This document shows, piece after piece, positions 10,376 through 27,342 of a stretch of DNA of 34,825 nucleotides. The stretch is from an uncultured Gammaproteobacteria bacterium (lineage in GTDB: Bacteria; Patescibacteriota; Patescibacteriia; Patescibacteriales; UBA12465): assembly GCA_964572055.1 (NCBI GenBank), contig CAZNDY010000003.1, positions 3,928 to 38,752 on the forward strand. The letters run 5' to 3'. The position numbers and the translations under genes are program-made. The stretch's first letter is position 1; each line of letters opens with the position of its first letter. The notes below the pieces were generated by a model. The model was given only the letters and a program-made list of their open reading frames with translations, was not told the DNA's origin and did not search any database.

Positions 10376-10381
10376 ATTTAC

Positions 10382-10410: not shown

Positions 10411-10427
10411 ATTCTTATATAAATTAT

Positions 10428-11540: not shown

Positions 11541-11626
11541 TTTTATTTTTTCTTTATATAAATTTTAATTGAATTTTGAATAAATTTGTGATAAAATTTG
11601 TATAAATTAATTTAAATTTATAATAT

Positions 11627-12784
11627 ATGAAAGAAATAAGTGATGTAATTATAAAAAAATCGGATCAACTAAAAAATTTGGGTATAAATTATTTAAAAAG
11701 TTGTTTTTCATCATTGGAGGACCAAAATTCAATTAGACAAAAATTTTCAAATATTTCTGGAAAAACGGGACAATATTTTGTTCCTGAAAAATTATTTCAA
11801 AAAAGAACGGCAAGGAAAAATCGAGCCTTAATTCCGTTTGAACACGTTGTAAAATCCAATTTAACATATGAACAGCTAGACACTTTTGAAGGTGGTGTTG
11901 TTGTTGAGTTTGTTAATAATGACTATTTTGATCAACTCAAATTGCCAGAACATCAACAGAATGAAGTGTTTAAAAAAATTAAAGATAGACTCGGGTCAAA
12001 TGATAATGTTTCAGGGATAATTGATATTAGAAGTGTTGGTGATTCTTCTTCTCATGTTCAAAGAATAGCCCTGGAGAAATTAGAAGAATTTTTGAATAGT
12101 AGCAACAAAAGAATAGAAGAAGTGTTACTCAAAAGAGATCATAGGATTAATTATACTGGTCAAGGCAATGACAAATGGAGCGGTTACGTTTATTATTCTG
12201 TAAAAGGCGGACAACAAAATGCAAGAGATTCTCATGATGAGTACAGTATTCCATCGCAAGAAATTCAATTATTTAATCCTTCCGTAGAGTATGCAGGATC
12301 AATTGTTTCTAATGATATTACATTAGTTTTGATTTATTTTGCAATGTTTTCAGTGCCCGAAAAAAGAAGAAATGATAATTGGAAAAATTTAATTACACAA
12401 TATTTAAAATATTTTTCTACTAGAAAATACAACAATAAAACACTTAGTGATTATGTTACCAATCATATTTCTTTAAAACTTGAAGAGGGAAAGTTGCTAG
12501 ATCCTATTCAAGTTAGCCCGATTCATATAGAAGATTTTGCAATTAATAGTCGGGAAGAAAATTCTTTAGATATAACCCATCAGACATCTGTAAATAGATA
12601 TAGTTATATATGGGATGAAGAATTGGGAATATTATTGACTGCGGCAAGACCAACTAATTTATTTTGGTCTAAACATTTATCAAATATGATGCAACAAGAT
12701 TTTTCTTTAAAGGAATATTTTATGCATCAACGCGAAATAGTGTCAAAATGGGATGAATACGGAATTGATAAACTAGACGAATAA
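11627..12784 (+). CDS. putative type II restriction endonuclease (tentatively BstXI-like)
   Basis: Convergent with a DNA methylase. The N-terminal KTGQ...LFQKRTARKNRALIPF recalls the BstXI-family N-terminus (from memory, unverified). Confidence 0.6.
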   Translation: MKEISDVIIKKSDQLKNLGINYLKSCFSSLEDQNSIRQKFSNISGKTGQYFVPEKLFQKRTARKNRALIPFEHVVKSNLTYEQLDTFEGGVVVEFVNNDYFDQLKLPEHQQNEVFKKIKDRLGSNDNVSGIIDIRSVGDSSSHVQRIALEKLEEFLNSSNKRIEEVLLKRDHRINYTGQGNDKWSGYVYYSVKGGQQNARDSHDEYSIPSQEIQLFNPSVEYAGSIVSNDITLVLIYFAMFSVPEKRRNDNWKNLITQYLKYFSTRKYNNKTLSDYVTNHISLKLEEGKLLDPIQVSPIHIEDFAINSREENSLDITHQTSVNRYSYIWDEELGILLTAARPTNLFWSKHLSNMMQQDFSLKEYFMHQREIVSKWDEYGIDKLDE

Positions 12785-12793
12785 AAAAATAAT

Positions 12794-14878
12794 TTAACTG
12801 TTCTGCGATTTTTCTATTCTTTCGCATGCAAGTTTAAAATATTCTTTATTTATTTCAAATCCAACATTTTTTATTCCCTTATTTTGCATTAATATACTGG
12901 TAGTTCCGCTACCTAGGTATGGGTCGACAATGGTTGATTTTTTGTTTAAAAAAGGAATTAGAAGTTCAGGAATTTCTTCTGGATATGGCGCGGTGTGACC
13001 TACTATATTTTTTCCTTTTGAATTAATCTTTTTGACGGAGTCTATTTTTTTCACTTGAGTAGATTTCATTTTTGTGAATTTATTTTTTGCAAATATAATA
13101 CAATGTTCGTACGAATTAATTGGGTTAATATAACCCGCAAAAAGATTAGAGGTTGAGTTTCTTTTGCTTTCTACCTCTCCTTTGTCCCAGATAATGTTAG
13201 AAATTGTTTTAAATCCAATGAGCTCAAATATAAAGATTGAATAAAAGCCTAGCATTTGCCTTCTTTTAGACATGTTTGATTGAATATATATGTTATCTTG
13301 TCCAACAACATCGCCTATGTTGTAAATATATATTCCATTTTTATCCATTGATGTTATTACTGCCTTGGCATTTATCATCATGTCTATTAAATATAATAGT
13401 AAATTTTGCCATTGGGAATATTCTCTTGCGTTGTAGTAAGGAGGAGAAGTTACGGCTCCCTGAAATTTAGGTATATTAAGTTTTTTGTTTAGAAATGGTA
13501 GGATGTAAGAAGAGTCACCATTTATGATAGTACTGTTATCTATTTGCTTAATATTATAGTTTGTATTTTTTTCTTTGAATTTTATATTTTCAGCAATAGA
13601 ACTAAATAGTTTAAAAATTAGCAAATTATTAATCCTATTTTTATTGTCGAAAGAAAAATATTTAGATTTTTTAACTCTTCTATTTTTAAAAATTTTTTGT
13701 TCAAAATTTGTATTTATTAAAAGAATAGAATCGTTAGCCCATGTATATAAAGAAATTAATTTTTCAAGTAAAGATCCTGTTGGTTTAATAATATCTCTTC
13801 TCATGTGAAAATAAATTTCGTTGTCTATTTTGTCAAAATTATCATTTCTCTCTAATAATACCTGTCTTTTTGCTGCGAGTAGGTCATATCTTTTGCCACG
13901 ACCAATTTTACTTCTGGCCGGGCAAGAGGGATTTGTGCATTCGAAGCTTTTATATAATATCCTTGAGTAAGAATTGCCACGAACCAATTCCTTGTGACAA
14001 GCTGGACATTTTTTAGGCTGTTCGTCTAATTCAAATTTTTGCATAACAAGAATTTGGTTTATTCCATCTTCAGTAATAAACAAATCTTTAAATTGAAAAC
14101 CGTATGATATGCCATCATAAAATGCATTTACCAAATTATCGATTTGATGTGAATATTTAATTTGAGGGTGGCTTTTTAAAAAACAAGTAAGTTCTTTGAT
14201 TCTTTCGTCTCTATTTCCTCTATTGAATACATCAAAATTTTTTTCAAGTCGAAAATTTTCCATATAAACTGAAACATCCGAAATAATTTTCCAATCAACT
14301 TTAGAGTCTTTATTATTAAAAATTAATATCATGTGATGATAGTTGGATAGATTAGAATAATTGTTTTCAATAATTTCAGCAATATTGTCTGATGAATAAT
14401 GGTCGTTATTATTTATTGTTAATACAATTAACTCATATTTATCTTTTTGCAGATTGTGGATATATTCTATATATTTTTTAGAATAATTTTTTTCTTTATT
14501 TAAAACCAATTTTTTAATTCTGGCAATTAAAGATTTTTTCATGAGTGGCTCATTCTTGTTAAATCCTTTTTTGATTAGCATATAGGCCTTGTTTATGTCA
14601 TTATTATCAATATCTATCTTTTTTATATTTTTGAATATATTTTTATCTTTAAGTGGATATCCTAGAAGATATTTTCTTATTGTTTCTTTTTCTACGGAAT
14701 TGATTTTGATATCTTTTTTAGACTTTATATCATTAATAATTGATGTTAACTTATTATCTATAACCCGAGTTATATCTAAAACTAAGACGTCAAGAATCTT
14801 TTCATTAAGCGAATAATCTAGTTTTAATTTTTTGAGGTCATTATTGAGTATTGCAAGAATGTTTTTTTTATTATACAT
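12794..14878 (-). CDS. large beta-class amino-DNA methyltransferase (probably N4-cytosine) with internal zinc ribbon
   Basis: VTSPPYYNAREY (motif IV) precedes HTAPYP and DPYLGSGT (motif I); CPAC...CTNPSC zinc ribbon; long N-terminal extension. Confidence 0.88.
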   Translation of the reverse strand: MYNKKNILAILNNDLKKLKLDYSLNEKILDVLVLDITRVIDNKLTSIINDIKSKKDIKINSVEKETIRKYLLGYPLKDKNIFKNIKKIDIDNNDINKAYMLIKKGFNKNEPLMKKSLIARIKKLVLNKEKNYSKKYIEYIHNLQKDKYELIVLTINNNDHYSSDNIAEIIENNYSNLSNYHHMILIFNNKDSKVDWKIISDVSVYMENFRLEKNFDVFNRGNRDERIKELTCFLKSHPQIKYSHQIDNLVNAFYDGISYGFQFKDLFITEDGINQILVMQKFELDEQPKKCPACHKELVRGNSYSRILYKSFECTNPSCPARSKIGRGKRYDLLAAKRQVLLERNDNFDKIDNEIYFHMRRDIIKPTGSLLEKLISLYTWANDSILLINTNFEQKIFKNRRVKKSKYFSFDNKNRINNLLIFKLFSSIAENIKFKEKNTNYNIKQIDNSTIINGDSSYILPFLNKKLNIPKFQGAVTSPPYYNAREYSQWQNLLLYLIDMMINAKAVITSMDKNGIYIYNIGDVVGQDNIYIQSNMSKRRQMLGFYSIFIFELIGFKTISNIIWDKGEVESKRNSTSNLFAGYINPINSYEHCIIFAKNKFTKMKSTQVKKIDSVKKINSKGKNIVGHTAPYPEEIPELLIPFLNKKSTIVDPYLGSGTTSILMQNKGIKNVGFEINKEYFKLACERIEKSQNS

Positions 14879-14982
14879 ATTTTTTGTTATTTTTTAGAAT
14901 TAAGTTGTTGTTATAACTTGTTGTTTTAATCATTTAATTTGTTGTAGTTTGATTCTATCATAAATTAGAATTTTTTACACTA

Positions 14983-16338
14983 TCAATTTTTAAGCCATAT
15001 TTTTTTATTTTTCATAATTAATTTGCTTTCCATATTTCCCAATATTTCTCTTTTTTCTAATAAATTTCCTTCTCTTAAAACATACTTAACATAATTTCTC
15101 ATATCTATCTCTTTTTGCTTATCAAAATCAATATCAGTTTTTCCAAGTATTCCTTTGCTAAACTTATAGTATCTCTCAATTTCTTCATTAAATTGATGTT
15201 GTATGCCTAATTCATTAATATCTATTTCGTCTATTATTTTTATTAATTGCTCAATTAATTCTTCTTCTCTAATATAACCACATTTACAGTTAATATCCTT
15301 ACCTCTAGTACAGCCATAATAGACATATCTTCTAACTGAGCCATCGTTCAGTTTTTTAAATTTTTCTTCAGCTGTTATACTCGATCCACATAATCCACAT
15401 TTCATTAATTTAGTGAAGGCAAATTCCTTGCATTCATGTCTTTGAATATTATCTCTACTTAATTGTTCGTTGGCTTTTAAATATAAATCTTTTGATATTA
15501 TCGGATCATGATTTCCTTGATACCACTTATCACTCCCAATAGGGTATTCAAATTCTCCATAATAGAAAGTTTCTTTAATTAATCTATAAAGCATACTAAG
15601 AGTCATATTTTTATTATTCTTAGTTTTAAAATTGGTTTCTTCTTTAAGCCATTTATATATCTTTCTGCCACTTAATTTATCATAGGCAAATTTCTCAAAT
15701 ATCTTTTTAATTATCGGAGCTCTCTTGGGATCAGTAAATACTCTTTTGCCACCTTTATCACCGTACTTGTCGTGAAGATATCCTAGAGGAGCTGGTCCTG
15801 GTCGCCAACCTTGCTCACATTTAGCTCTAAGTCCTCGTTTTACATTTTGCCCTTTATGGTCATTTTCTAATTTAGCCTGAGAACCTAGTATCATCAGCAA
15901 GAATTTCTCATTAGGATTATTAGTAAATTTCTGTCCATGAGTTCTGATTTCTTTAATTAGTCCTTGATCCATTAAATCTACTATTGCTCCTAAGTCCCCA
16001 GCATTTCTACTTAATCTATCGGGAGCCCAACAAAGTATTCCGTTAAACATCCCTGATTTAATATCAGTAATTAATTGATTAAATATTGGTCTTTGTCCTG
16101 AATCTTTAGCGCTATGACTTTCTTTTCTAACCTCTACTATATCCATATTTTCACTCTTAGCCATTTCTAACATTTCTTTGATTTGAGAATCTATAGAAAG
16201 GGCTTGAAGTTCGTCTGATTCGGTTGATTTGCGAGCGTATAGGCAATACTTTGTTGGAATCTCAATTAGCTCCAAATTAGCCCTATTTTGCTCCCTAATG
16301 GCTGTACTTGGTCCATAAGACCTTAGTTCTTGATTCAT
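14983..16338 (-). CDS. large serine recombinase (resolvase + recombinase + zinc-ribbon domains)
   Basis: YARKS catalytic motif, SIDSQ, PDRLSRN, PLGY, FYYG, HDPIIS, CGLCG...YYGC...C. Confidence 0.95.
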   Translation of the reverse strand: MNQELRSYGPSTAIREQNRANLELIEIPTKYCLYARKSTESDELQALSIDSQIKEMLEMAKSENMDIVEVRKESHSAKDSGQRPIFNQLITDIKSGMFNGILCWAPDRLSRNAGDLGAIVDLMDQGLIKEIRTHGQKFTNNPNEKFLLMILGSQAKLENDHKGQNVKRGLRAKCEQGWRPGPAPLGYLHDKYGDKGGKRVFTDPKRAPIIKKIFEKFAYDKLSGRKIYKWLKEETNFKTKNNKNMTLSMLYRLIKETFYYGEFEYPIGSDKWYQGNHDPIISKDLYLKANEQLSRDNIQRHECKEFAFTKLMKCGLCGSSITAEEKFKKLNDGSVRRYVYYGCTRGKDINCKCGYIREEELIEQLIKIIDEIDINELGIQHQFNEEIERYYKFSKGILGKTDIDFDKQKEIDMRNYVKYVLREGNLLEKREILGNMESKLIMKNKKIWLKN

Positions 16339-16493
16339 ACGTTTTATTCATTAATTATTAATACTAATCAATGAATGACGTAAAGACCGAACTAAGTCTA
16401 GATGCTGAGAGTAGGTAAGAAGTTAATAACTTTTGCTTTATTTTTGGTTAAATTTATGTTAAAGTTAGATAATAAAAAAATTAATTATTTTTT

Positions 16494-17186
16494 ATGAATC
16501 CTGGATATATTGGATTGATCGAATCTATTTTAAAGAGCAAAAAACTCGAAGATTTTATAGGTGTTGAAGAGAGCCTTGAATTTGAGGTCAAAAACAGTAG
16601 TCCTTATGATTTTTCTTCGCCAGGAGATAGATATGAATTGGCAAAAGATGTCTCTTCTTTGGCTAATAGTAAGGGTGGTTATATCATTATTGGACTTAAA
16701 ACCGATCCGTTACAAGAGAGAAAATCTGATATTGTTTCTGAATTAGATCTAATTAAAAAAGAAGATTTTAATTCAGCTATTTATTCTGGAGTTATTAAAG
16801 ATAATATTTTTCCCAATATTGAAAAGATTGATGTTGGCTGGGTGGAAGATGATAGTAAGACTGGCTTTGGCATTGGGTATATTTATATACCGATACAAAA
16901 TGATAATAAAAAATATTTTATTACAAAGAATATAATAGAAGATAATGAAAAAATAAAAAATATAGTTTTTGGTGTATCCGAAAGAAAGGATGGGGATAGC
17001 ATCCCGTTAAATGAAGATAAAATTTACAAGACCTTACAAAGCGGGAAAAGCTCAGTTTCCGAAAGACTAACATCCATAGAAGGGAGTATTAATAAACTAT
17101 TTAGTTTGATTTTAAAAAAAGATAAAAACAAAAAATTAAATAATTTTGATAAAGATATCGAAAATAAAATAAAAAATATTTTATGA
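16494..17186 (+). CDS. Schlafen/AlbA_2-domain protein
   Basis: ESLEFEVK, ELAKDVSSLANSKGGYIIIG; coiled-coil-like tail. Confidence 0.85.
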   Translation: MNPGYIGLIESILKSKKLEDFIGVEESLEFEVKNSSPYDFSSPGDRYELAKDVSSLANSKGGYIIIGLKTDPLQERKSDIVSELDLIKKEDFNSAIYSGVIKDNIFPNIEKIDVGWVEDDSKTGFGIGYIYIPIQNDNKKYFITKNIIEDNEKIKNIVFGVSERKDGDSIPLNEDKIYKTLQSGKSSVSERLTSIEGSINKLFSLILKKDKNKKLNNFDKDIENKIKNIL

Positions 17187-17896
17187 ATATAAAAGAGCCA
17201 CTATATATAATAATCGCTAAACCTTTAGATGATTGTAAAATAAATAATTTTTTTTCTGCAGATGTTGGAGGCGCAAAACATTTATTAGAGCATCCTGGTG
17301 GATTAAGATATGCTGGATGGGATTTAGAAACTTTAGATAATGCTAGGTTGATTAAGGGGGAATATTATGAAGTAGTAAATGGAGATAGAAAAAAAATTCG
17401 TCTGTACGAAGATGGGGTATTAATTATGAAAGTGAGCGCAAATCAAAATTTTTTAGGATGGGGCAGAAATCCAGATAATTTTTTAAATAGCCCAAGATTG
17501 AATCCCATTGCCTTAATAGAGGTTACTTATAATTTTGTTTATTTCTATTCAAGGCTAATTAGTTTTTTTGATAATGATCCAAAGAGTATAAAATTTGTAA
17601 TTCAATTTAGAGATACTTTTTTGTCAGAAAATAAAAAATTGTATTTAAATCCATATGGAAATGATAGTTTAAATTTTGCCTTTGATGATTATCCTCAAGA
17701 ATCACCAGAGAATTTTATGGAAAAAGATGCTTTATTTTCAAGTCAAGAAATTATAAGCAATAATGCTAGATGTTCTTATGAGTTGATAAAGAAAATTTAT
17801 AATTGGTTTGGCATTACTGATGAAAAAATTCCATTAGTGATAAAGGATGATGGCGGCCTTGATGTTATAGATATTGAAAAGATAAAAAAGATGTAA
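17183..17896 (+). CDS. hypothetical protein translationally coupled to the AlbA_2 gene
   Basis: ATGA overlap with the upstream stop; LRYAGWD motif; shared terminator downstream. Confidence 0.75.
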   Translation: MNIKEPLYIIIAKPLDDCKINNFFSADVGGAKHLLEHPGGLRYAGWDLETLDNARLIKGEYYEVVNGDRKKIRLYEDGVLIMKVSANQNFLGWGRNPDNFLNSPRLNPIALIEVTYNFVYFYSRLISFFDNDPKSIKFVIQFRDTFLSENKKLYLNPYGNDSLNFAFDDYPQESPENFMEKDALFSSQEIISNNARCSYELIKKIYNWFGITDEKIPLVIKDDGGLDVIDIEKIKKM

Positions 17897-17924
17897 ATAA
17901 TGGTAAAGTTTTGATAACATTTAG

Positions 17925-17950
17925 AAAGGCGAGGATCTCCTCGCTTTTTT
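17925..17950 (+). terminator. intrinsic terminator
   Basis: AAAGGCGAGG-ATCT-CCTCGCTTTT followed by T's. Confidence 0.8.
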
Positions 17951-17978
17951 GTTGTAGATAAGTTGTTGGTAATTTTGC

Positions 17979-18007
17979 TTTACTTTTATGTCTTTTTAAG
18001 CTATATT
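17979..18007 (+). promoter_or_regulatory. sigma70-type promoter driving the structured RNA
   Basis: TTTACT-N17-TATATT; the predicted start (~18012-18014) coincides with the first stem. Confidence 0.55.
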
Positions 18008-18011
18008 TATA

Positions 18012-18167
18012 GTGCAAAACTACATTTATATATACGTGAGGATTGAGCCATTTTTTTGGTTTATTTTTTCCTATTCATGCACAGGAACGGACACTTCGAC
18101 CAGCATGAGTAGGATCCTCACGGATACCCAAAATGTAGTTTTGCAACTAGGTCGGGTGTCCGTTTTT
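18012..18167 (+). ncRNA. structured RNA / regulatory leader, C4/CI antisense-RNA-like architecture
   Basis: Nested stems 18013-27/18131-45 (15 bp perfect), 18035-43/18114-22 (9 bp) and 18070-80/18103-13 (11 bp). Loop 18086-18101 is complementary to 18150-18164, which is followed by a T run. Confidence 0.7.
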
Positions 18168-18210
18168 GTTAAATTATATTAATTTTAATTTATATATAAT
18201 TATTAAGATT

Positions 18211-18807
18211 ATGAAAAATAAAATTATAAGAAATATTTTTTTTATTATTTTTTCAGCAATCGTTATATTAGTAAGTTTTATTATTGGCAATCTTTTAGGT
18301 GGCTTTGTCGGTGGTGCTTTGGGTTCTTTGTTGGCAGTAATTTATATTGAATATCGCTTATCCAAAAAAAATATTAGTCTGATAAGAATTAACTTAAATA
18401 AGAAAGATTATACACTTATTATTGTTGTCTTTTTGGTAGTTACAATTATTTGTTCTGTATTATATTTTGTTTCCAATAGAGACAGCAAAAAAGAAGAAGA
18501 GGATATTTATGTTAAAAGCCCTGGAAAAGAAATTAAAGAAGAGTTAGATTTTTCTGTAGTTGATGTGGGGCGTTTTTATGACGGCCTGGATGGTTTTTCA
18601 ATTTCTATTCCGTCTGGAAATATTTCTGTTTGTGTCTGGACTTATAATGCTGGTAGTGGTGTTATTCCAAATCTAATTACGACAGAGGCAAGAACTGCGA
18701 CAGAAAAGCATACCATTTCTGTTTATGGAGATGAAGGAGATTTAAAGGTGTTCTGTGTTGACGATTTTGGTGATAAATATATTGGTGTATTTCCAGAAAA
18801 TAATTAA
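18211..18807 (+). CDS. hypothetical membrane protein (about 3 TM plus C-terminal soluble domain)
   Basis: ORF with hydrophobic segments; ATG 18211 preferred over TTG 18166. Confidence 0.7.
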   Translation: MKNKIIRNIFFIIFSAIVILVSFIIGNLLGGFVGGALGSLLAVIYIEYRLSKKNISLIRINLNKKDYTLIIVVFLVVTIICSVLYFVSNRDSKKEEEDIYVKSPGKEIKEELDFSVVDVGRFYDGLDGFSISIPSGNISVCVWTYNAGSGVIPNLITTEARTATEKHTISVYGDEGDLKVFCVDDFGDKYIGVFPENN

Positions 18808-18817
18808 TATAAAAAAT

Positions 18818-19450
18818 ATGAAGAAAAATTTTAAAATGTTTGCAATATCCATAATTTCAATTTTAGGTATTTCAATATTGTTATTTAAAATTTTTAATAG
18901 CCTAGAAACACATTTTTTATTTAATAAAAGCAATAATGAAGAAGATGTAATAATAGAGAAAAAAATTATCATGGAGCAAATAGAAGTAGCAACTTTTTCT
19001 AATAATGAAAAAATATTGGCTTATAGAAAAAATAAAGTTGGGGATATTGTTTACGCCGAAGTGCTTACTATTGATTTAATAACAGGAGAGGAAAAAACGT
19101 ATGTAAAAGAAATATCATCTATAAACCCAGAAGGAGTTTATATTATTAAAGACGTTTTTCTTTTAAAAGATGAAAAACATATTTTAGTTTTAGATAGTTT
19201 TTCTTCTTATCGCACTGGCGATCTTTATTTAATTGATCTAGAAAGTGGTGATATGAAACCCATAAATGATGGGAATGATCCAAAATTAATAAAAGAAGGA
19301 AAATATAAGGACTATCTGCTTCTTCAAAAACATGCTTATGAAGCTATACCAACTTTTGATTATTATGTGATAATTAATCCTTTAACAGGTGAAGAGATTG
19401 AAAATTTAGGAGACAACATAGATAACTTTGATTTTTTAAATATAAAATAA
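18818..19450 (+). CDS. hypothetical membrane-anchored/secreted protein, beta-propeller-like
   Basis: N-terminal signal/anchor; repeated TIDLITGE / LIDLESGD / IINPLTGE blade-like motifs. ATG 18818 preferred. Confidence 0.65.
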   Translation: MKKNFKMFAISIISILGISILLFKIFNSLETHFLFNKSNNEEDVIIEKKIIMEQIEVATFSNNEKILAYRKNKVGDIVYAEVLTIDLITGEEKTYVKEISSINPEGVYIIKDVFLLKDEKHILVLDSFSSYRTGDLYLIDLESGDMKPINDGNDPKLIKEGKYKDYLLLQKHAYEAIPTFDYYVIINPLTGEEIENLGDNIDNFDFLNIK

Positions 19451-19454
19451 TTTT

Positions 19455-20219
19455 ATGAGCAATTTAAAAGAAATAATTTCAAAAAATTATAAACTAAAAT
19501 TTCCCGCTTTAATGTATAATGTTTTAAAATGGGAAAAAGAGAGAGTTGATAAAAATTTTACCAAAGGTTCTTACTTTGAAGACATCAATGATAAATTTGG
19601 AATTTTTCCAAAAACTAAACTATATCCAATGTATTTTTATGGCAATATTGAAAATCCTAAAAATAAATATGTTTTTGTTGGTATAAATCCTAGTTATACT
19701 GGCGGACTAGAAGAAAACGAATATTTAGAAGAAAAAGAATCAGTTGCTAAATACTACCACTTTCTAAAAAACGCTTTTATTTGGTGGAATATTAAACTTG
19801 ATCACAAGTTTCTTCCTTATTTTAATAAAATTTCTTTATATCTAAGTGAAACAGAGAATATAAAAAGAGAAGAGATTAGTTATAAATGGTTACAAGAAAA
19901 TGTTATTAATTTAGAATTAATTCCTTATCACTCTAAAAGTGCTGATGGTTTGTTGGTTAATAATATTGAAGAATATTATCAAACATATTTTGAATTATTT
20001 AGAAAAGCCATAAAACATATTAACCCTAATAAAAAAATAGTTTTTTTTGGTTCGTCTAGTTTTGAAAACATATTTGTTGATAATAATATTTTTAACAAAG
20101 ACATTATTATTGAAAAAAACAACAGTATCTATTCTGGAAAAATATTTGGTAAATATGATTTTATAGTCTTACCCTTTAGATTTTCCAAAAATATTTTATC
20201 AAATCAGGGCAGAGATTAG
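19455..20219 (+). CDS. uracil-DNA-glycosylase-superfamily protein (Brig1-like, putative anti-phage)
   Basis: PMYFYGN...YVFVGINPS and LELIPYHSK motifs; IVFFG. Confidence 0.55.
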   Translation: MSNLKEIISKNYKLKFPALMYNVLKWEKERVDKNFTKGSYFEDINDKFGIFPKTKLYPMYFYGNIENPKNKYVFVGINPSYTGGLEENEYLEEKESVAKYYHFLKNAFIWWNIKLDHKFLPYFNKISLYLSETENIKREEISYKWLQENVINLELIPYHSKSADGLLVNNIEEYYQTYFELFRKAIKHINPNKKIVFFGSSSFENIFVDNNIFNKDIIIEKNNSIYSGKIFGKYDFIVLPFRFSKNILSNQGRD

Positions 20220-20236
20220 GTCATTTGGTGTTCATT

Positions 20237-21373
20237 TTATTTCTCTCTTAGTATTCTTTTAATTTCTTCCAATGCATCGATAGGTTTGTTTTTTTCATAA
20301 ATATTTTTTTCTTGATTTAGTTTTCTTAATTCATCAGCTTTTTTTTCTTCTAAAATTTTAGATTCCTCACATTCTTTATTTCTTTTTTCAGCTTCTCTCA
20401 CGATATCACTTAGATAATAAATTGCAGATGATCCTGGTAATTCTTTGCTAGATTCATAATTGTGAATATCTTTATTTATAGATTCAATTTTTCTATTACT
20501 AAAACCAACTCGTCCATCTTTAGTTTTTAGTAAATATTCTTGTAGATAAGTATCTTTAGGTATATTTTTTATTGTATCACTAACAATATCTTCATTCTTA
20601 AATTTTTCTGACCATAAAACTTTATCGTTACTATCAAATAATGGGTATAGTTTAAAAACTCCTTTTATTCTTTCTTCTAAAATATCTTTCATTAAATTAA
20701 ATAATATAGAGCTTGTAGAAATAGGGGTTCCTAATACTATTATTTTAGTATTAAAATCACCGCAGGATAAAACGTCTTCTTTGAACCATTCATATTTTGT
20801 GTTATTTTTTCCCCTAGAGTAGGTAACAAATTTGTTCTCTAGGTCATCACAGATAATTAAATCTGGTCTTTTACTTTTATATCTCAATCCTCTCAGAGAT
20901 TGTTCGGTTATGGCAATTATTATTTTAGCTTCAAGCTTTTCAAATTCTATCATGGTTAAGTTTTTGGTCAGTTTTCTTTCATTAATCAAATCAAAGTCAT
21001 TTATTAATAATTCGTTTTCTCTTAATTCTTCAATGATATTTTTTATTTGGGTTTTAGCTTGAAATATTGATTGGCTAATTATGAGAACAAACTTTTTTTG
21101 AGGTTTGCCCAATATTGACCACAGAGCCATTGATAGATTCAGGATTGTTGATTTTCCAGCCCCACGAAAAGCACTAATGACAACTAAGTTTATTTCAGGA
21201 TGTTCAGATAGTCCAAACATTTGTTTATGAAACCAAGAAAAAGGATATTCCATGTAATGGTTTAAATATAATCTAAAAAACCATTCATGACTTTGATAAG
21301 CCAGTGCTTGTCTAAAAGTTTTACTATTTTTGCATTCTTTAATTATTTTATTTAATTCATTATTTTTTTTCAT
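20237..21373 (-). CDS. terminase large-subunit-like ATPase, no C-terminal nuclease domain
   Basis: WFHKQM, Walker A AFRGAGKST, LRGLR..RPDLIICDDLE (Walker B), IVLGTP, YLQEYL; then a charged helical tail. Confidence 0.8.
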   Translation of the reverse strand: MKKNNELNKIIKECKNSKTFRQALAYQSHEWFFRLYLNHYMEYPFSWFHKQMFGLSEHPEINLVVISAFRGAGKSTILNLSMALWSILGKPQKKFVLIISQSIFQAKTQIKNIIEELRENELLINDFDLINERKLTKNLTMIEFEKLEAKIIIAITEQSLRGLRYKSKRPDLIICDDLENKFVTYSRGKNNTKYEWFKEDVLSCGDFNTKIIVLGTPISTSSILFNLMKDILEERIKGVFKLYPLFDSNDKVLWSEKFKNEDIVSDTIKNIPKDTYLQEYLLKTKDGRVGFSNRKIESINKDIHNYESSKELPGSSAIYYLSDIVREAEKRNKECEESKILEEKKADELRKLNQEKNIYEKNKPIDALEEIKRILREK

Positions 21374-21755
21374 AGTTCTTATTATTAATTATATACAAAG
21401 CTTTTTCTAGAAGCCTTGATTGTTCTAGACTTAATTTTTCTTGAACTATTTTTATTTGTTGATTTTTTTCTGTAAAATCAGGATGATTGTTTTTGAGCCA
21501 ATAGATAATGGCGGTTATATTTCCTGATTTAATAAGTTCAATAAGCTTAGAATAAGCTAAATCATTTATAACTAGTTTGCCGTTTTTTATGGCGTTTTCG
21601 CAGGCTTCTTTAAATTTGCTGTCTTTTTCTAGCCAACGATAATAGGTAGTTCTGGTTATTTGAACTTTTCGGCAGACAAACTCAATAATTGGATTTGTCT
21701 CTAAAAAATTTATAATCAGTTCTTTTATTTTTTCTTTATCTTTAATTTCATTCAT
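21360..21755 (-). CDS. terminase small-subunit-like HTH protein
   Basis: CRKVQITRTTYYRW HTH; GNITAIIYWLKN motif; directly upstream of and overlapping the TerL-like gene. Confidence 0.75.
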   Translation of the reverse strand: MNEIKDKEKIKELIINFLETNPIIEFVCRKVQITRTTYYRWLEKDSKFKEACENAIKNGKLVINDLAYSKLIELIKSGNITAIIYWLKNNHPDFTEKNQQIKIVQEKLSLEQSRLLEKALYIINNKNYEKK

Positions 21756-22516
21756 AACTTTATCTCATCTATCAAAACAGATTTCTTTCTACTTAATTTT
21801 TCCCATCTAGAAATAATTGTTTGACAATGCTCTTTGTCAAGCTCCACCATTAAACATTTTCTTTTTAAATGTTCTGAAGCTATTAGTAGTGATCCAGAAC
21901 CACCAAAGCCATCAAAAACCACATCATTTATTCTAGTGCTATTTAAAAGAATTTTTCTAAGCAGTCCAACCGGTTTCATGGTGCTATGTAGTTTACTTTT
22001 ATTTGGTTTGGGGTAAAAAATGACGCTCTTATCCTTGCTTCTTATAAATTCATGTTTCTTATACCAACCATAAGCGATTAATTCGTGTTGGGGCAGATAA
22101 TCTAGTCGTCCCACCACTGCTTGAGATTTTATCCAGATAAGTAATTGAGAGAATTTAAATCCAGCTCGAAGCATAGCTTCTTTTAAGGGAAATATCATCT
22201 TGTCAGAATTAAATATATATATAGAATTTTTTCTTTCTAAATATTCTTTGATGTTATTTAACCAAGCAAGAGTAAATTCTTTATATTCTTCATCTGTTTG
22301 GGTTTGGTCGTTGGCTATTATTTTTTCACAGGCTAATTTTTGTTTAAAGCCAATTTTACTTTCAACATAAGCTACACCATAAGGAACATCGGTTATGATG
22401 CTCTTTATCTTATCCTGAGCTATTAGTCTTTTAAGTAAATCTTTATCATTAATATCCCCGCAAGCTAGACGATGATCACCCAATTTAAAGATGTCTCCAT
22501 ATTTAATGTTTTCCAT
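21752..22516 (-). CDS. beta-class amino-DNA methyltransferase
   Basis: LGDHRLACGD, ITDVPYG (variant DPPY), HSTMKPV, DGFGGSGS. Confidence 0.9.
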   Translation of the reverse strand: MENIKYGDIFKLGDHRLACGDINDKDLLKRLIAQDKIKSIITDVPYGVAYVESKIGFKQKLACEKIIANDQTQTDEEYKEFTLAWLNNIKEYLERKNSIYIFNSDKMIFPLKEAMLRAGFKFSQLLIWIKSQAVVGRLDYLPQHELIAYGWYKKHEFIRSKDKSVIFYPKPNKSKLHSTMKPVGLLRKILLNSTRINDVVFDGFGGSGSLLIASEHLKRKCLMVELDKEHCQTIISRWEKLSRKKSVLIDEIKL

Positions 22517-22520
22517 ATAA

Positions 22521-23792
22521 TTATTTATTTAAAAGTACTGCTTTTGCGCCAGTTAACTTTTCAAATCTATTAATTATTAGTTGGCAAAATATCGGGCTTT
22601 GTTCAATTAAATAAGCCCTTCTTTTTAATTGCTCACAAGCAATCAGAGTTGATCCAGAGCCACCAAATAAGTCTAGTATAATGTCATTGACCTTTGAACA
22701 TCTTCTTAGGGCTTTCTCGTGAAGTACCGGAGGTTTAGATGTTGGGTGTTCATAATCTTGTCCTGGCATTCGTTTAACCAGCCAAATATCTAGTATATCT
22801 AAGATATCTTCAATAGCTCTATTACCAGTTCCTATTTCTTTATTTAAAAGTTCATTTAAATTTTGAGCAGGGGACAAGTAAGGCGAACCAACAGTTCCAT
22901 AAACACATGGTTCATAGCATTTATTAAAAGCTATTTTAGGTGTTGGATTAAAACCATTTTTAATCCATAAACAAACTCTTTGATTGTTTATTTTTAGATC
23001 AGAGTAAATGCTTTGTAGTAGGCCAATATATTTTTGGTCGCAGTAATAAAAGAAGTGAGAATCGGTCATACTGACCGATAAAGCATTTTTAATAGTTTGT
23101 TCTAAAAATATTTTATAATCTTTATAACTTTTTTTGTCATTAACTTTTCCTCCATAGTTTTGTTTATTTCCAAGACCTTTATTGTAATCCAGTGATATAT
23201 TATATGGAGGGTCGCAATATATCATTCTACCTTTATTATCTCCCATTAATTTTTTAACAGAAGATTCTTTAGTAGAATCAGCACATAATAAGCGGTGATT
23301 TCCTAGAGAAAATAAATCCCCACTTTTTATATTAGTTTCTTTTATCTTTTCTAATTCCTTTTCTTCTTCAAAATTATCATCTTCAATTTCTAAAACATCA
23401 TCCCAAATATCATTTAATTCTGTATCACTAAAACCAACATCAAGCAGTAAGCTGGAGTCAAATTCTCTAAGTAGGTAAAAATCCCATGATCCAGTGTTTT
23501 TATTGAGTCTTAAATTAAGCTCTCGTTCTTTTTCTTTATTTAAGTCTAAAAACACCACAGGCACCTCTTTATAGCCTAATTTTTTAGCTATTTTTAATCT
23601 TTGATGACCGCCAATAACTATATTTTGTCTGTCTTTATTAGAATTAACCAAAATAGGATCAACCAAACCAAAGCTTTTAATGCTTTCAGTTAAATCAGCT
23701 TCTTGCTTACTGTCTAACTTTCTTGGGTTATATTCAGCCATTCTTAGCAAATCTACATTTATTTCAACGATTTTTAAATTGTTACTTAACAT
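22521..23792 (-). CDS. ParB/Srx-domain fused beta-class DNA (adenine) methyltransferase
   Basis: AEYNPRK, FGLVDPILVN, IGGHQR (ParB-like); LGNHRLLCAD, CDPPYN, HPTSKP, DLFGGSGST. ATG 23792 preferred over TTG 23837, which lies in a hairpin. Confidence 0.92.
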   Translation of the reverse strand: MLSNNLKIVEINVDLLRMAEYNPRKLDSKQEADLTESIKSFGLVDPILVNSNKDRQNIVIGGHQRLKIAKKLGYKEVPVVFLDLNKEKERELNLRLNKNTGSWDFYLLREFDSSLLLDVGFSDTELNDIWDDVLEIEDDNFEEEKELEKIKETNIKSGDLFSLGNHRLLCADSTKESSVKKLMGDNKGRMIYCDPPYNISLDYNKGLGNKQNYGGKVNDKKSYKDYKIFLEQTIKNALSVSMTDSHFFYYCDQKYIGLLQSIYSDLKINNQRVCLWIKNGFNPTPKIAFNKCYEPCVYGTVGSPYLSPAQNLNELLNKEIGTGNRAIEDILDILDIWLVKRMPGQDYEHPTSKPPVLHEKALRRCSKVNDIILDLFGGSGSTLIACEQLKRRAYLIEQSPIFCQLIINRFEKLTGAKAVLLNK

Positions 23793-23821
23793 AAAATTAT
23801 ATTTAATTATAAAATTAGTTA

Positions 23822-23857
23822 AATAATAAAAAATCAACGTTTTTAACGTTGATTTTT
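23822..23857 (-). terminator. intrinsic terminator/attenuator in the leader of the methylase operon
   Basis: Minus strand AAAAATCAACGTT-AAA-AACGTTGATTTTTTATTATTT, about 30 nt upstream of ATG 23792. Confidence 0.65.
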
Positions 23858-23937
23858 AGTGTTTTTTGTACAAAAAAAGACAAATAAGCATTAAAATATA
23901 TGCGCTAAAAGCGAAGATATCTCAATTCAAATTCGTC

Positions 23938-24109
23938 TGTACATCTATGGTAAATGTACACTCGTGTATCTAGCTGAGCAGCTGACGACAATTTTGGCAC
24001 CTTTTATTAGCTACAACCCTTTTATTACAATAGAGGGCGAAACTATGGGTCTAATACGGTTGCATGAGTGTATTTATTTATTAATTAACTTAAGTCTTTC
24101 AACTTATCT
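23938..24109 (-). ncRNA. structured 5' leader, candidate SAM-I-like riboswitch variant
   Basis: Closing stem TACACTCATG/CACGAGTGTA; GCAACC-(GTATTAG...CTAATA)-AAAGGTGCCAA; AGCT hairpin then AGAT; lies between a promoter and a terminator. Confidence 0.45.
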
Positions 24110-24115
24110 AATAAC

Positions 24116-24144
24116 ATTATAGCATATTTAAACATATATTTCAA
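24116..24144 (-). promoter_or_regulatory. strong sigma70-type promoter of the methylase-terminase operon leader
   Basis: Minus strand TTGAAA-N17-TATAAT with an extended TG motif. Confidence 0.75.
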
Positions 24145-24209
24145 GGATTTTTTTGACTAAAATGTGTAAAATAGGTTGAAAAAAACTGGACAGTTTAGCT
24201 ATAATTATC

Positions 24210-24238
24210 TTGAAGCCATGTATTTTTAGTGGTAAAAT
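24210..24238 (+). promoter_or_regulatory. sigma70-type promoter of the HEPN gene (divergent)
   Basis: TTGAAG-N17-TAAAAT with TG; a second candidate TTGAAA-N18-TATAAT at 24176-24205. Confidence 0.55.
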
Positions 24239-24258
24239 GAAGGTGTAATATAAAATTT

Positions 24259-26037
24259 ATGTCTGATAGAAACATATACATTTCTCAATACTTCAAAAAT
24301 GTATTTAATTCAAATATAATCGATTCTTTTAGACCTAGATACTCTAACGTACATATTATATTGGAAGAACTTTTGGATACGTGCAAATTAGTTGAAAAAA
24401 ACATTATATCTAACTATTATTTACCTAAAATTATTGAGGAGGCGATTATCCTTATTAACGACGACGTAATTTTAAACCAAGATAAAAATATAAAAAGAAG
24501 AAATTTTTTATTGAAAAAATTGAGTTTGACCGGAAAAAAGATTGGAGAAATAGATTGTTTTATTCAATTTTTAAAATTAGAATTGGTTTTCATGAGAAAA
24601 AAATATCTCAATTCTCTTAAAGAAGAAATTTTTGCAATTAGTGATAAGAGAAAAAAAGTTGATAAGTATCCAAAACAAAAGATTAGGAGATTGTTGGGCT
24701 CTTTTATTAGTGAATGTATGTTCGTTGGGGTTTCCTTTAAATCTTTAAAAAAATTAGGATCACTAAAAAAAGAATATTCAAGAACAGATATAAAGAAAAT
24801 AATAGATAAAATATTAAGTAAAAAATCATTTAATTTTTATTTATTATTATTTGGTGTTGATAATAGTGCAATTGATTTTTTTGTAAAAACATTTAAGAAC
24901 ACTAAAGATAAGTCATTTTTGGTTCATAAAAAATGGCCAACAAAAATTATTCCAAAAGCTTTTAAATCAGAAATGAGTAGAAGAAAATATGTTGTTTTTG
25001 AAATTAAAAAACGGAAATTTTTGGATTGTTATGGAGGATTATTGGAAATCAGAACAGCCCTAGAACCAATAGTTAATATTGTTCATATATTCTATCCAGG
25101 AAAACAATTATATTTTTTTAATAAAGGTTTTATAATGGATTATTCTTCAAACAAGAAATCATCAACAATTAACTATATTGATGTTGTAAATTATAGATGT
25201 GTTAACAATGAAACAGTCGATGAAAAAATATTTTCTTGTTTTAATTTACCAGAAGAAATACAAAACAAGTTGTTTAATTCAGCCTCTTACTTAAATATTA
25301 GTTTAAATGAATTTAATATAATAAACAAATATTTAAATGCTTGGGTTTCTATCGAAATTATTTTTAATACTGTTAAGAATGACAGTGGAGATGAGAATGG
25401 AAAAACAGTTGGTTATATTAATGAGTTTGTCCCAAAAATTTTTAGTATTTTTTATGTATCGAAAATAATTAAATTTTTATTTCAGAGAGTTTTGAGTTTG
25501 AAATTAGATATTAATGAAAAGTTTATTATTAACAACAAACATGATGTTATTGTTTTTTTGGAATATTTAAAAAAAGAAGAAAATAAAGCTATTTTGTTTA
25601 ATAGACTGGTTGGAGAAGAAGAATTGCGCGAGACTTTGTTTTATTTTGTTGATATAATATTTGATAATAAAAAACTTTCTAAACTATTAGAAAAACATAA
25701 AGAAAAAATATTGTTTCATTTACAGAGGTTGTATCGGTTGCGCAACATTTTAATTCATGGAGGAGAAAAAAACATTAAAGCGGATGGTCTATATAATATT
25801 TCTTCGATTGCTATGTTGTGTACCAATTGTCAAGAATATTCAACACAGCTTATAAGTTATATTTCCGAAATTTATATTAATTTGCCAGAAAAATATGAAC
25901 GAGATAAATTAACCATGTTCAATATCTTAAATCTTTTTTCGGTGTTATATGATAAAATTGTATACAAATTAGATAAAGATGACTTTGATTTTAATGAATT
26001 AAAAAAAATGTTTTCACCAATTGATTTTATAGAATAA
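24259..26037 (+). CDS. ApeA-like HEPN-domain protein (putative RNase effector)
   Basis: C-terminal KYLNAWVSIE helix and LYRLRNILIHGG (RxxxxH). Confidence 0.7.
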   Translation: MSDRNIYISQYFKNVFNSNIIDSFRPRYSNVHIILEELLDTCKLVEKNIISNYYLPKIIEEAIILINDDVILNQDKNIKRRNFLLKKLSLTGKKIGEIDCFIQFLKLELVFMRKKYLNSLKEEIFAISDKRKKVDKYPKQKIRRLLGSFISECMFVGVSFKSLKKLGSLKKEYSRTDIKKIIDKILSKKSFNFYLLLFGVDNSAIDFFVKTFKNTKDKSFLVHKKWPTKIIPKAFKSEMSRRKYVVFEIKKRKFLDCYGGLLEIRTALEPIVNIVHIFYPGKQLYFFNKGFIMDYSSNKKSSTINYIDVVNYRCVNNETVDEKIFSCFNLPEEIQNKLFNSASYLNISLNEFNIINKYLNAWVSIEIIFNTVKNDSGDENGKTVGYINEFVPKIFSIFYVSKIIKFLFQRVLSLKLDINEKFIINNKHDVIVFLEYLKKEENKAILFNRLVGEEELRETLFYFVDIIFDNKKLSKLLEKHKEKILFHLQRLYRLRNILIHGGEKNIKADGLYNISSIAMLCTNCQEYSTQLISYISEIYINLPEKYERDKLTMFNILNLFSVLYDKIVYKLDKDDFDFNELKKMFSPIDFIE

Positions 26038-26112
26038 GTTTTATCTTTTGTGTTGGTGTTATTAGTGTTTTTAATATTTTAATATAATTTATAACTTTAA
26101 TAATTTTTACCA

Positions 26113-27342
26113 ATGAATAACGATAATAAATTAAACAGAAAGTTTATAGTTTGGAGTATTTTTATTGGAGCAGTTTTTAGTTTTTTAATTAATATTATTT
26201 CTAATGCTTGTTATGATGTTTTTGTTTCAAAAAGCATAGAATTGAATAATTTGGATTGGCGTATTTGTACTTTTTGCATTTTGTTTTTAATTGCTTTAAT
26301 TGGATACTCTTTCTTTTTTATATACGACTATCCAGAGACACCAAAATTAACATTTAAGTATTTGGAAAGATTTTGGTCTTATTTTAATAATATTTTTTTA
26401 TTGGGTAGGATTTTGGGGCTTATTTTTGCGATTTATATTTTATTGTTTTCGTTAGTGTTGTTAGCCCCGGTCTATCTTTTATTGTGTAAGCTTTTGGGAA
26501 TTTGGTGGGGCTCAATTATGTTTATAATTATTTTTGTTTTTGTTTGGAAAGAAGATAAGTATAATAGAAAATATATGAAAAAAATATTTATTAAAAATCG
26601 TAAGAATCAAAACATCTCTGTTCTTATAGAAAAATCAAAAAATCAAAAAGGTTTGGCGTTTGTAATGCATGGTCTCGGTGGTTTTAAAGAGCAGCCTCAT
26701 ATTGAAACATTTGCCAAAGCTTTCAAAAACAATAATTATACGGTTATTAGATTTGACACAACTAATTCCTTTGGCAAAAGCGATGGTGATTATGCCGATG
26801 CCACCATAACTAATTATTATGAAGATTTAGAAGATGTTATTGATTGGTTTAAAGAGCAAAAGTTTTATCAAGAACCATTTGTTTTATGTGGTCATAGTTT
26901 GGGTGCTATTTGTTCAGCCTTGTATGCTGAAAATTATCCCGAAAAAGTTAAGGCTTTAGCGCCCATCTCAACCGTGATCAGTGGTGAATTGAGTCAGCAA
27001 ACATATTCCAAAGAAGAATTAGAAGATTGGCAAAAGACTGGTTTGCGAACGACAATTGGGTATAGTAGTGGTATTAAAAAAACTATCAAATGGGCCGAAA
27101 TGGAGGATAGATTAAAATATAATTTATTATTAAAGGTTGATAAATTAATAATGCCCGCTTTAATGCTTGTTGGCGAGCTCGATACCTCCACTCCACTAAA
27201 ACACCAGCAAATTTTATTTGATAAATTACCAGGTAAAAAGGAAATGCACGTTATAAAAGGGGCTCAGCATACTTTTAGGGATGAAAATCATTTGGATGAG
27301 ATTTATAATATTCTAAATAAATGGATCGAGAAGATTGATTAA
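26113..27342 (+). CDS. alpha/beta hydrolase with in-frame N-terminal ~4-TM segment
   Basis: HGLGG, GHSLG nucleophile elbow, GELD, GAQH. The hydrolase domain begins at an internal ATG 26575. Confidence 0.85.
   Translation: MNNDNKLNRKFIVWSIFIGAVFSFLINIISNACYDVFVSKSIELNNLDWRICTFCILFLIALIGYSFFFIYDYPETPKLTFKYLERFWSYFNNIFLLGRILGLIFAIYILLFSLVLLAPVYLLLCKLLGIWWGSIMFIIIFVFVWKEDKYNRKYMKKIFIKNRKNQNISVLIEKSKNQKGLAFVMHGLGGFKEQPHIETFAKAFKNNNYTVIRFDTTNSFGKSDGDYADATITNYYEDLEDVIDWFKEQKFYQEPFVLCGHSLGAICSALYAENYPEKVKALAPISTVISGELSQQTYSKEELEDWQKTGLRTTIGYSSGIKKTIKWAEMEDRLKYNLLLKVDKLIMPALMLVGELDTSTPLKHQQILFDKLPGKKEMHVIKGAQHTFRDENHLDEIYNILNKWIEKID

Follow-up and report, generated by a model that had tools for sequence, protein, structure and literature searches.

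The 34,825-nt stretch of DNA analyzed here (hereafter the window; positions 3,928 to 38,752 of contig CAZNDY010000003.1) contains an island of about 18 kb, from approximately 10500 to 28483, that is integrated at the 3′ end of a tRNA-Gln gene and is built around a ParB-methylase, a second methylase, a TerS-like protein, a TerL-like protein, and a large serine recombinase. The source genome comprises 876 kb in 84 contigs and is 92% complete, and the window has a G+C content of ~27%. The island very probably is a mobile member of a family found in Patescibacteria. The explanation that best accounts for all the evidence, to which we assign a probability of roughly one half, is that it is an integrative island with a satellite life cycle that belongs to a branch with a reduced terminase. 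Within that explanation, transfer of the island in helper-phage capsids is by itself close to an even bet, perhaps slightly under.

Four tightly coupled genes on the minus strand encode the ParB-methylase, the second methylase, the TerS-like protein, and the TerL-like protein in that order. Adjacent genes are 4 nt apart at the first junction and overlap by 4 and 14 nt at the second and third. The first gene (22521-23837) encodes a fusion of ParB_N (PF02195, 4.8e-12) with an N6_N4 methyltransferase (PF01555, 2.4e-29). Its likelier start is the ATG at 23792, which yields 423 aa, and its ParB_N motifs YNPRK and GGHxR are invariant or conserved among 72 homologues. The gene is followed by those for a 254-aa N6/N4 DNA methyltransferase (21752-22516; PF01555, 3.9e-28), a 131-aa TerS-like helix-turn-helix protein (21360-21755; phrog_309, 4.2e-10; PF13022, 2.1e-8; a weak match to Sf6 TerS) that fits the conserved family alignment (alignment A4), and a 378-aa TerL-like protein (20237-21373) whose match to phrog_38 (2.8e-39) covers residues 13-286 only. 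Five genes, all on the plus strand (16494-20219), lie between TerL and the co-oriented large serine recombinase (14983-16338, minus strand), a protein of 451 aa that is presumed to be the integrase (phrog_95 integrase, 1.9e-63). The recombinase carries Resolvase (PF00239), Recombinase (PF07508), and Zn_ribbon_recom (PF13408) domains, as well as the motifs YARKST, with the nucleophile Ser38, and DRLSR. In NCBIfam it matches CcrB best (6.3e-32), but the score of 110.9 bits falls far short of the cut-off of 900.

Open reading frames (ORFs) of at least 60 aa between 10.7 and 28.4 kb were annotated with Pfam, PHROGs, NCBIfam, and PADLOC, and these libraries assigned none of the island ORFs to a family of portal, capsid, tail, replication, or relaxase proteins. 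A preliminary description of this DNA had reported the tight minus-strand genes, the co-oriented recombinase, the opposite-strand cargo, and the same ATG start, and had recognized no virion, replication, or relaxase genes; every gene that it named is present and the profile scans agree with its negative finding. Its view of a minimal element has to be revised, since the att-bounded integrative element that it envisaged is about 18 kb long, reaches well beyond the coordinates given for the core (14983-23792), and has three cargo slots.

The evidence for the larger limits comes from the sequence junctions at the two ends. The integration target is the 3′ end of tRNA-Gln(CTG) (10428-10499, plus strand; found by ARAGORN and Rfam), which contributes the left half of attB within attL. 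This tRNA gene follows LysRS in relatives as well, and genomes of the same genus retain LysRS, a 305-aa gene, and tRNA-Gln. On the far side, the flank with MFS, EngB, and CspA genes recurs in genome G009, and EngB and CspA recur in G013, with variable content between the two flanks among genomes. The attL core GAGC-AG-ATG (10496-10504, plus strand), which was aligned with attR, the attB of genome G017, and the joined form in locus L251, marks the tRNA/island junction and reads tRNA...CCCCGAGC-AG-ATGTTTC. Arm A (10500-10610, plus strand) is the end of the island nearest the tRNA; it has a terminator-like hairpin and is 88-91% identical to counterparts that abut tRNA-Asn in locus L253, lie at the contig start in L252, and form part of the joined form in L251. 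The opposite end, comprising arm F and the attR core GAGC-GA-AT (28480-28487), occupies 28388-28487 (plus strand) and was defined by alignment with relatives; its identity to the corresponding ends of G009, L251, and L252 is 82-88%. Here the sequence reads ...GTAGGGAGC-GA-ATAAAAAAAG, with GGGAGC-GA-AT at 28478-28487, and the DNA beyond it is the flank that directly follows the tRNA in G017.

In G017 the site is uninterrupted (tRNA...CCCCGAGC-GA-ATGAAAAAAA), and in L251, a metagenome contig, the island ends are joined in the order arm F, GAGC-GA, arm A. Four junction types, tRNA/flank, F/A, tRNA/A, and F/flank, are therefore available and resemble attB, attP, attL, and attR, and they give the island a span of approximately 10500-28483. 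The junction sequences fit a short GAGC(GA)AT core, and no long repeat was found upstream of the ParB-methylase in 16 of 18 loci. Two relatives extend the comparison: L252 is integrated with both arms present, and L253 has arm A at tRNA-Asn, a recombinase that is 95% identical, and the same pair of methylase and restriction-enzyme-like genes. The serine recombinase, which is the only recombinase in the island, would most likely insert and excise the island at the tRNA-Gln 3′ end.

The island of G009 at tRNA-Gln (L087, ~9960-16808) has both arms (A′ and F) and lacks the 13.5-kb core. It carries no methylase, terminase, or recombinase genes, and its cargo consists of a 5′-nucleotidase and DUF5677. 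Compared with the window, both of its breakpoints fall at the 8-mer TAAAATGT (10603 and 24158), which occurs six times in the window. From this comparison the element had been considered a 13,555-bp insertion flanked by the 8-mer, and those limits were abandoned because the tRNA-end junctions were found. The G009 island is better read as a derivative without the core genes, although the core may instead have been inserted into an older island like that of G009.

The same architecture is widespread in the phylum, with a family backbone of ParB-methylase, a second methylase that is optional, TerS, TerL, and a serine recombinase. At least 561 TerL relatives were found in a scan of one genome per species and at least 539 in IMG/VR, and a TerL of the island type is present in 44 of 400 genomes sampled evenly across the phylum and in 3 of 20 genomes of the window's own genus, at 36-38% identity. 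The sources compared for gene content were 80 loci and the window, 81 in all: 79 contain the methylase cluster, 80 TerL, 59 TerS, and 53 the recombinase, and the next commonest gene cluster is found in only 20. Three samples supplied 198 island-context loci, of which 78 came from genomes, 42 from IMG/VR, and 78 from a TerS-anchored collection. Downstream of TerL there is a recombinase in the same orientation in 40, 30, and 36 of these, respectively, and many loci without a visible downstream recombinase end at contig borders. Nothing separates TerL from the recombinase in 15 of the 40 genome loci, and the ORFs that do occupy this interval in genome loci are mostly on the opposite strand (66, versus 10 on the same strand). 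The search for the five-gene synteny in CPR genomes that had been suggested for this DNA returns hundreds of Patescibacteria loci without structural genes. The window matches the family in backbone synteny, TerL clade, and tRNA junctions, but its TerL lacks the nuclease domain.

Other features of the family bear on its integration, mobility, and cargo. A tRNA 3′ end faces the recombinase side in 18 of 60 scanned loci, at distances of 144-5982 nt (4484 nt in the window). Two loci from different species (L056 and L063) share a 6.4-kb block that is 91% identical between otherwise unrelated flanks and that ends ~27 nt inside tRNA-Ser. For 29 of 53 loci, the nearest TerL neighbor is among the five nearest recombinase neighbors, compared to ~5 expected by chance, and the always-adjacent ParB-methylase gives a similar concordance with TerL (27 of 53); shared host ancestry inflates both counts. 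This measure replaced a global distance correlation (TerL versus recombinase, r 0.09, p 0.18; ParB-methylase, r 0.05) that proved powerless. Recurrent cargo in the family includes defense genes (type I restriction-modification, SMODS/SAVED, GmrSD, reverse transcriptase, KAP NTPase, Eco57I-type enzyme, SNase) and copper or redox genes (P-type ATPase, CsoR, DsbD-HMA, DUF305), and no structural (virion) cluster recurs among the family loci.

Several side observations concern the family as a whole. Two tandem full-length TerL paralogues that fall in different parts of the tree occur in species genomes (L022, L038, L051, L072) and in IMG/VR (L104, L109, L115). The TerL proteins of L019, L028, L044, L059, and L174 reach ~700 aa, and the ~200 aa by which they extend past the nuclease domain at the C-terminus have no Pfam match. 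Also, many island contigs (L002, L009, L021, L033, L056, L063, and others) bear record titles such as Gammaproteobacteria, Bdellovibrionales, Rhizobiaceae, Methanoregula, and Thermoplasmata. These records probably are mislabeled or mis-binned, and they provide no evidence for a wider host range.

The TerL-like protein of the window is an ATPase-only form that has lost its DNA-cutting half, exactly as the label "TerL-ATPase" had implied. Its Walker A (GAGKST at 71), Walker B (ICDDLE at 174), and C-motif (LGTP at 214) sequences are intact, and the RNase H-like nuclease domain is absent, as judged by the lack of a PF17289 match and by alignment with relatives of ~500 aa that have the domain. When 79 of the 83 TerL ORFs of related loci were scanned for PF17289, after exclusion of four that extend to the edge of a contig, the domain was present in 40 of 56 ORFs of at least 430 aa and in none of the 23 shorter ORFs. 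An AlphaFold model built from 56 sequences (mean pLDDT 85) shows a confident ATPase domain at residues 1-288, after which residues 290-321 form a disordered linker and residues 314-361 a long helix. The best Foldseek matches of this model are all TerL ATPase domains (PhiV-1 T7-like, T4 gp17, P74-26, Sf6, D6E, HK97, and T7), and a sequence search of solved structures gave only weak terminase matches (4bij, 7.5e-6; 8dgc, 6.6e-5).

Nuclease-less TerL proteins fall in one sub-clade of 29 rows (support 99) that includes the window, whose row is on a long branch and unsure in its placement; other short rows are ORFs cut at contig ends. The nuclease domain thus appears to have been lost essentially once, in this one sub-clade. 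In its Saccharibacteria-type part, the short TerL is under strong purifying selection, with an omega of 0.02-0.09; in pairs with a dS of 0.18-1.1, the ATPase domain has values of 0.02-0.05 and the tail 0.04-0.17.

The window's own lineage presents a different pattern. In the comparison with L251, for which dS is near saturation (0.6-1.5) and the TerL tail aligns poorly, omega is 0.046 for the recombinase, 0.05 for the methylase, and 0.055 for the ParB-methylase, and it rises to 0.16 for TerS, 0.18 for the TerL ATPase domain, and ~1.1 for the TerL tail. Overall, TerS and TerL span 0.16-0.26 versus 0.05 in the neighboring genes, and both are under relaxed constraint in this lineage. The same two backbones are mosaic in their identity: ParB-methylase, methylase, and recombinase are 91%, 90.5%, and 95% identical, and TerS and TerL (20237-21755) are 56-66% identical. 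Either faster evolution or exchange of a terminase cassette could have produced this mosaic.

An ordinary prophage remnant, from which structural genes were deleted and the rest is being lost, could also leave a truncated TerL with a neutral tail and a relaxed ATPase domain, and the coreless G009 island and the lack of any observed excision would fit such decay. However, this origin is highly improbable. Hundreds of loci have the five-gene backbone, and among the 198 island-context loci examined there is none with a portal or capsid gene next to it. In a FastTree phylogeny of 158 TerL proteins, those from island contexts form one clade (125 rows, support 98) with the portal-linked proteins outside, the opposite of the interleaving expected from independent decays. 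Likewise, IMG/VR relatives at or above ~30% identity have the capsid-less synteny, and only in more distant ones is TerL followed by portal, head-morphogenesis, protease, and major-head genes. The strong purifying selection on ParB-methylase, methylase, and recombinase, the presence of the same arms at tRNA-Gln and tRNA-Asn, and the near-identical blocks in different species also do not fit decay.

Because the backbone recurs so widely and the TerL clade excludes portal-linked proteins, these islands are best viewed as a lineage of capsid-less elements that did not arise through simple prophage decay. This agrees with the preliminary description, which had argued against decay and had proposed a TerL phylogeny. 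That description held that its interpretation would suffer if the closest loci were complete prophages and if the core were under relaxed selection. The nearest TerL proteins prove to share the capsid-less synteny. The concern about relaxed selection is borne out for TerS and TerL in the window's lineage, and for TerL by its absence from six relatives, but not for the other core genes (omega ~0.05).

A phage satellite is the likeliest life cycle for these islands. TerS, together with TerL where it is complete, would direct island DNA into the capsids of a helper phage, and the methylases would protect or mark that DNA. A satellite logic is suggested because the family encodes a terminase and no procapsid, and a complete TerS and TerL pair is not known to have a role besides packaging DNA into procapsids. 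Of the TerS-anchored loci, 61 have a called TerS ORF, and in each of them TerL is its neighbor, in a long form in 53, a short form in 4, and a cut form in 4; a further 18 loci lack a separately called TerS ORF. Because nearly all of these loci keep a long TerL, a complete terminase is the family standard, and the window's branch is losing TerL but retains TerS, the methylases, and the recombinase. In this branch, packaging specificity might come from TerS acting with the terminase of the helper, as in phage-inducible chromosomal islands (PICIs); dependence of the window copy on a helper terminase is suggested because its siblings are TerS-only and its TerL is relaxed.

A number of observations weigh against a satellite life cycle or against individual steps in the case for it. 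No primase-replicase module was matched in any island ORF by Pfam, PHROGs, or NCBIfam, and no AlpA/MerR/Stl-type regulator is located beside the integrase or elsewhere in the island (an HTH_3 gene at 29100-29288 is outside), so that neither a replication module nor a regulator is recognized. A recombinase-anchored scan yielded 22 loci, of which 13 show the interval from ParB-methylase or TerS to the recombinase; among these 13, six have no TerL in any frame, three have a full-length TerL, three a short TerL, and one an interrupted TerL. The source genome even has a second copy (contig C13, 7289-11808) that lacks TerL in any frame and is located by tRNA-Asn (C13, 2659-2733). The identities of this copy to the window are 66% for ParB-methylase, 64% for methylase, 44% for TerS, and 75% for recombinase, and it carries one opposite-strand gene of 189 aa. 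A packaging role for the window TerL is doubtful because the protein is truncated and relaxed and because it is absent from six of 13 relatives and from the C13 copy.

Further points of this kind concern mobility and helpers. The serine recombinase is linked to the att junctions by association only. The F/A junction in L251 may represent a tandem arrangement or a relic rather than a free attP, because it adjoins an aminoacyl-tRNA synthetase gene on a 53.9-kb contig (39% of which was covered); relic arms are common at tRNA sites, for example in G009 and G017. The assembled contigs revealed neither an excised circle nor an empty-site read nor a packaged form, and none of 65 whole contigs with the module or related TerL proteins is circular as judged by terminal overlap. 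An exact search with a degenerate pattern found no further attP-type junctions in the viral_contigs and genome_contigs collections. No contig from public runs joins the island ends, a result that is uninformative either way, and the joints listed in those contigs have sides of 20-30 nt in low-complexity DNA.

No helper phage has been identified, either. Portal and HK97-type capsid families were found neither in the source genome nor in five near-complete carrier genomes, with a search based on three Pfam families that would miss divergent virion genes. Similarly, 88 structural-region proteins of the nearest phages gave three weak matches, one of them from a GroES-like query. A split-prophage arrangement or one resembling a gene transfer agent was rejected on the grounds that the three portal and capsid Pfam families are unmatched in these six genomes.

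Some of the same evidence would fit a cassette like the staphylococcal cassette chromosome (SCC), which would have no packaging role of its own and would move, for example, by natural transformation or generalized transduction, would carry TerL as a dispensable leftover, and would use ParB-methylase, methylase, and TerS for self-protection, epigenetic marking, or regulation. The tight constraint on the methylases and recombinase (omega ~0.05) next to relaxed TerS and TerL, the loss of TerL from close relatives and from the C13 copy, the CcrB match of the recombinase, despite its low score, and the lack of an observed helper or packaged form all point in this direction. This possibility, the likeliest of the rivals, nevertheless seems unlikely, since TerS and full-length TerL are nearly always kept together in the TerS-anchored loci, with none lacking TerL, and TerL is under strong purifying selection where this can be measured. 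Furthermore, a complete terminase is not known to act outside capsid packaging.

The long persistence of nuclease-less TerL proteins as a single clade, with Walker motifs intact and purifying selection in one sub-clade, might instead reflect a domesticated anti-phage module. Here, ParB-methylase, TerS, and the ATPase-only TerL would poison or compete for the terminase ring of invaders, and the whole would be mainly a defense island. Islands of the family do carry defense cargo, and known satellites interfere with helper packaging. However, PADLOC defense models match the core proteins only as generic methylases, most members keep a complete TerL with its nuclease, which fits packaging better, and TerL is relaxed or lost in the window's lineage. 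Such a function is improbable as the main explanation.

A bolder form of the satellite interpretation can be offered as a tentative proposal, with the odds clearly against it in full. By this proposal, the islands are an undescribed satellite family, and the window's genome captures a reductive path from a self-sufficient TerS plus TerL, through an ATPase-only TerL, to TerS alone, akin to the relation between capsid-forming PICIs (cfPICIs) and PICIs. The ATPase-only TerL would function in a split terminase with the ParB-methylase or as a factor that interferes with packaging by the helper phage. It may have arisen once and been conserved in some branches, and the ParB-like nuclease-type domain may be its partner. 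No description of the architecture was found in the literature searched, which included passages of PMC13059738, PMC7739484, PMC12960796, and PMC10085698.

Swappable cargo occupies three slots in the islands of this family: the stretch from TerL to the recombinase, that from the recombinase to the tRNA, and the DNA upstream of the ParB-methylase gene. In the window, the first holds five plus-strand genes (16494-20219): an SLFN_AlbA_2 gene (16494-17186), a gene at 17183-17896, one for a membrane-like protein (18166-18807), and two more at 18755-19450 and 19455-20219. Library scans gave no family match for the four genes other than that for the AlbA_2 protein, and L251 has a counterpart of just the last gene (75.6% aa identity), the remainder of its slot being different. 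The second slot encodes a 213-aa protein without a family match that is absent in L253 (10731-11372, plus strand), a 385-aa possible type II restriction enzyme (11627-12784, plus strand) with a weak PADLOC REase_II match (E 0.0056), and an adjoining 694-aa type II DNA methyltransferase (12794-14878, minus strand; PF01555, 1.5e-19; PADLOC MTase_II, 4.4e-60). The latter two form the pair that is kept in L253.

The third slot (24259-28384, plus strand) encodes a 592-aa protein, a 409-aa alpha/beta hydrolase (26113-27342), and a 218-aa protein (27728-28384). Its contents differ among relatives, with DUF5677, Abi_C, and AAA_13 in L251 and other genes in G009. An Atlas structure model of the 592-aa protein resembles clusters labeled ApeA/HEPN (TM 0.82-0.85), which can be taken as a lead only. 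The defense cargo proposed in the preliminary description is therefore plausible and in part evidenced: the type II methylase, the AlbA_2 protein, and the ApeA/HEPN-like lead speak for it, and the restriction-enzyme-like partner is only weakly matched.

A non-coding control region (23829-24258) separates the backbone from the third slot and includes a palindrome, divergent promoter-like sites, and a 120-nt segment conserved in G009 and L251. The best two promoter-like sites (11 of 12 positions), at 24144-24116 on the minus strand and 24176-24205 on the plus strand, flank the region upstream of the ParB-methylase. The intact promoter claimed in the preliminary description is a consensus match only, and the total of 54 such matches does not exceed the 55.6 found in shuffled sequences. 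Between the best promoter-like site and the ParB-methylase start is a perfect palindrome with a 13-bp stem (23829-23857; AAAAATCAACGTT TTT AACGTTGATTTTT), which could be an operator or a terminator/attenuator. Rfam returned only the tRNA, both over the whole window at the gathering score and at E <= 1 over 10300-16600 and 23600-28800, and the predicted RNA fold of 23838-24160 is not significant (z -1.4).

The DNA around the integration site has features of its own. The host-side flank (28484-28584, plus strand) contains a terminator hairpin, a GC-rich hairpin with a 9-bp stem, and a relic of a tRNA 3′ end (28566-28584) that retains 16 of 19 bases, with 0.00 such matches expected by chance. This relic was considered as attR and rejected; it lies in the host flank past the junction, and G017 and G009 have it as well. 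The unit of hairpins and relic downstream of tRNA-Gln occurs once in the window (28484-28584), once in G017 (L089, ~17183-17257), and twice in G009 (L087, 9960-10126 and 8474-8551). Its GC-rich hairpin (...GCGAAGTGC CTGC GCACTTCGC...) is unusual for DNA of 27% G+C and belongs to no Rfam family. In public run X1, the assembly graph branches at the tRNA-Gln 3′ end (window 10470-10499), and a 2.5-kb contig at a depth of 14.7, versus 38.8, has the final 30 nt of the tRNA at its start and then leads into other DNA. This branch hints at a coexisting variant with different content at tRNA-Gln.

Two neighbors outside the island were also noted. The MFS gene is split into ORFs of 168 and 169 aa (29445-29951 and 30134-30643), and its counterpart in G009, the closest relative, is a single ORF of 399 aa (L087, 6383-7582). 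A gene at 31764-32486 encodes a protein with two zf_Tbcl_2 treble-clef zinc-finger repeats, which correspond to a 96-nt direct repeat with 75% identity (31865-31960 and 32042-32137).

The genomes of CPR bacteria, or Patescibacteria, are tiny, few of their phages are known, and hardly any mobile elements have been described in them. A family of integrative islands present in about one of every nine genomes would be a main route of gene flow in the phylum. The islands carry packaging genes without capsid genes along with defense and metal-resistance cargo, and they would imply unseen helper phages. The window copy adds att sites at tRNA-Gln and tRNA-Asn, a natural clade of nuclease-less TerL proteins, and siblings without TerL. 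Taken together, these offer a way to test which terminase parts a satellite needs.

Several known systems share parts of this organization. PICIs such as the SaPIs, whose core gene list is given in PMC10085698, resemble the island in having an integrase on one side, a TerS of their own, cargo, and no virion genes, and their TerS-only logic corresponds to the window's reduced branch, in which TerS is kept and TerL is truncated or lost. Unlike PICIs, the island lacks a primase-replicase, an AlpA/MerR/Stl-type regulator, and a capsid-morphogenesis gene, it has a large serine recombinase and a core ParB-methylase, and most members of its family have a complete TerL. The hosts also differ, being Patescibacteria, and the island has no known helper phage or induction. 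Serine and tyrosine recombinases are treated as exchangeable by SatelliteFinder, according to the same source. The cfPICIs, which encode TerS and TerL together with capsid, head-tail adaptor, and connector proteins (PMC10085698), share the terminase pair with the island, but the other three components are absent from the island and from the recurrent neighbor clusters.

The SCC elements (SCCmec, with Ccr recombinases) are comparable as cassettes that are integrated site-specifically by a large serine recombinase and lack transfer machinery. They integrate at rlmH/orfX, whereas the target of the island is a tRNA 3′ end, and they have no terminase or ParB-methylase module. P4-like satellites have a conserved core flanking variable defense slots, no terminase, and a tyrosine integrase, and their core genes are unrelated to those of the island. 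Finally, the phi29 gp16 protein is a packaging ATPase without a working nuclease domain and thus offers a functional parallel to the window TerL. However, gp16 is not among the Foldseek matches listed for the window TerL, which are to nuclease-bearing TerL proteins of T7, T4, Sf6, P74-26, D6E, and HK97 type, and the C-terminus of the latter is a linker and a long helix rather than a vestigial nuclease fold.

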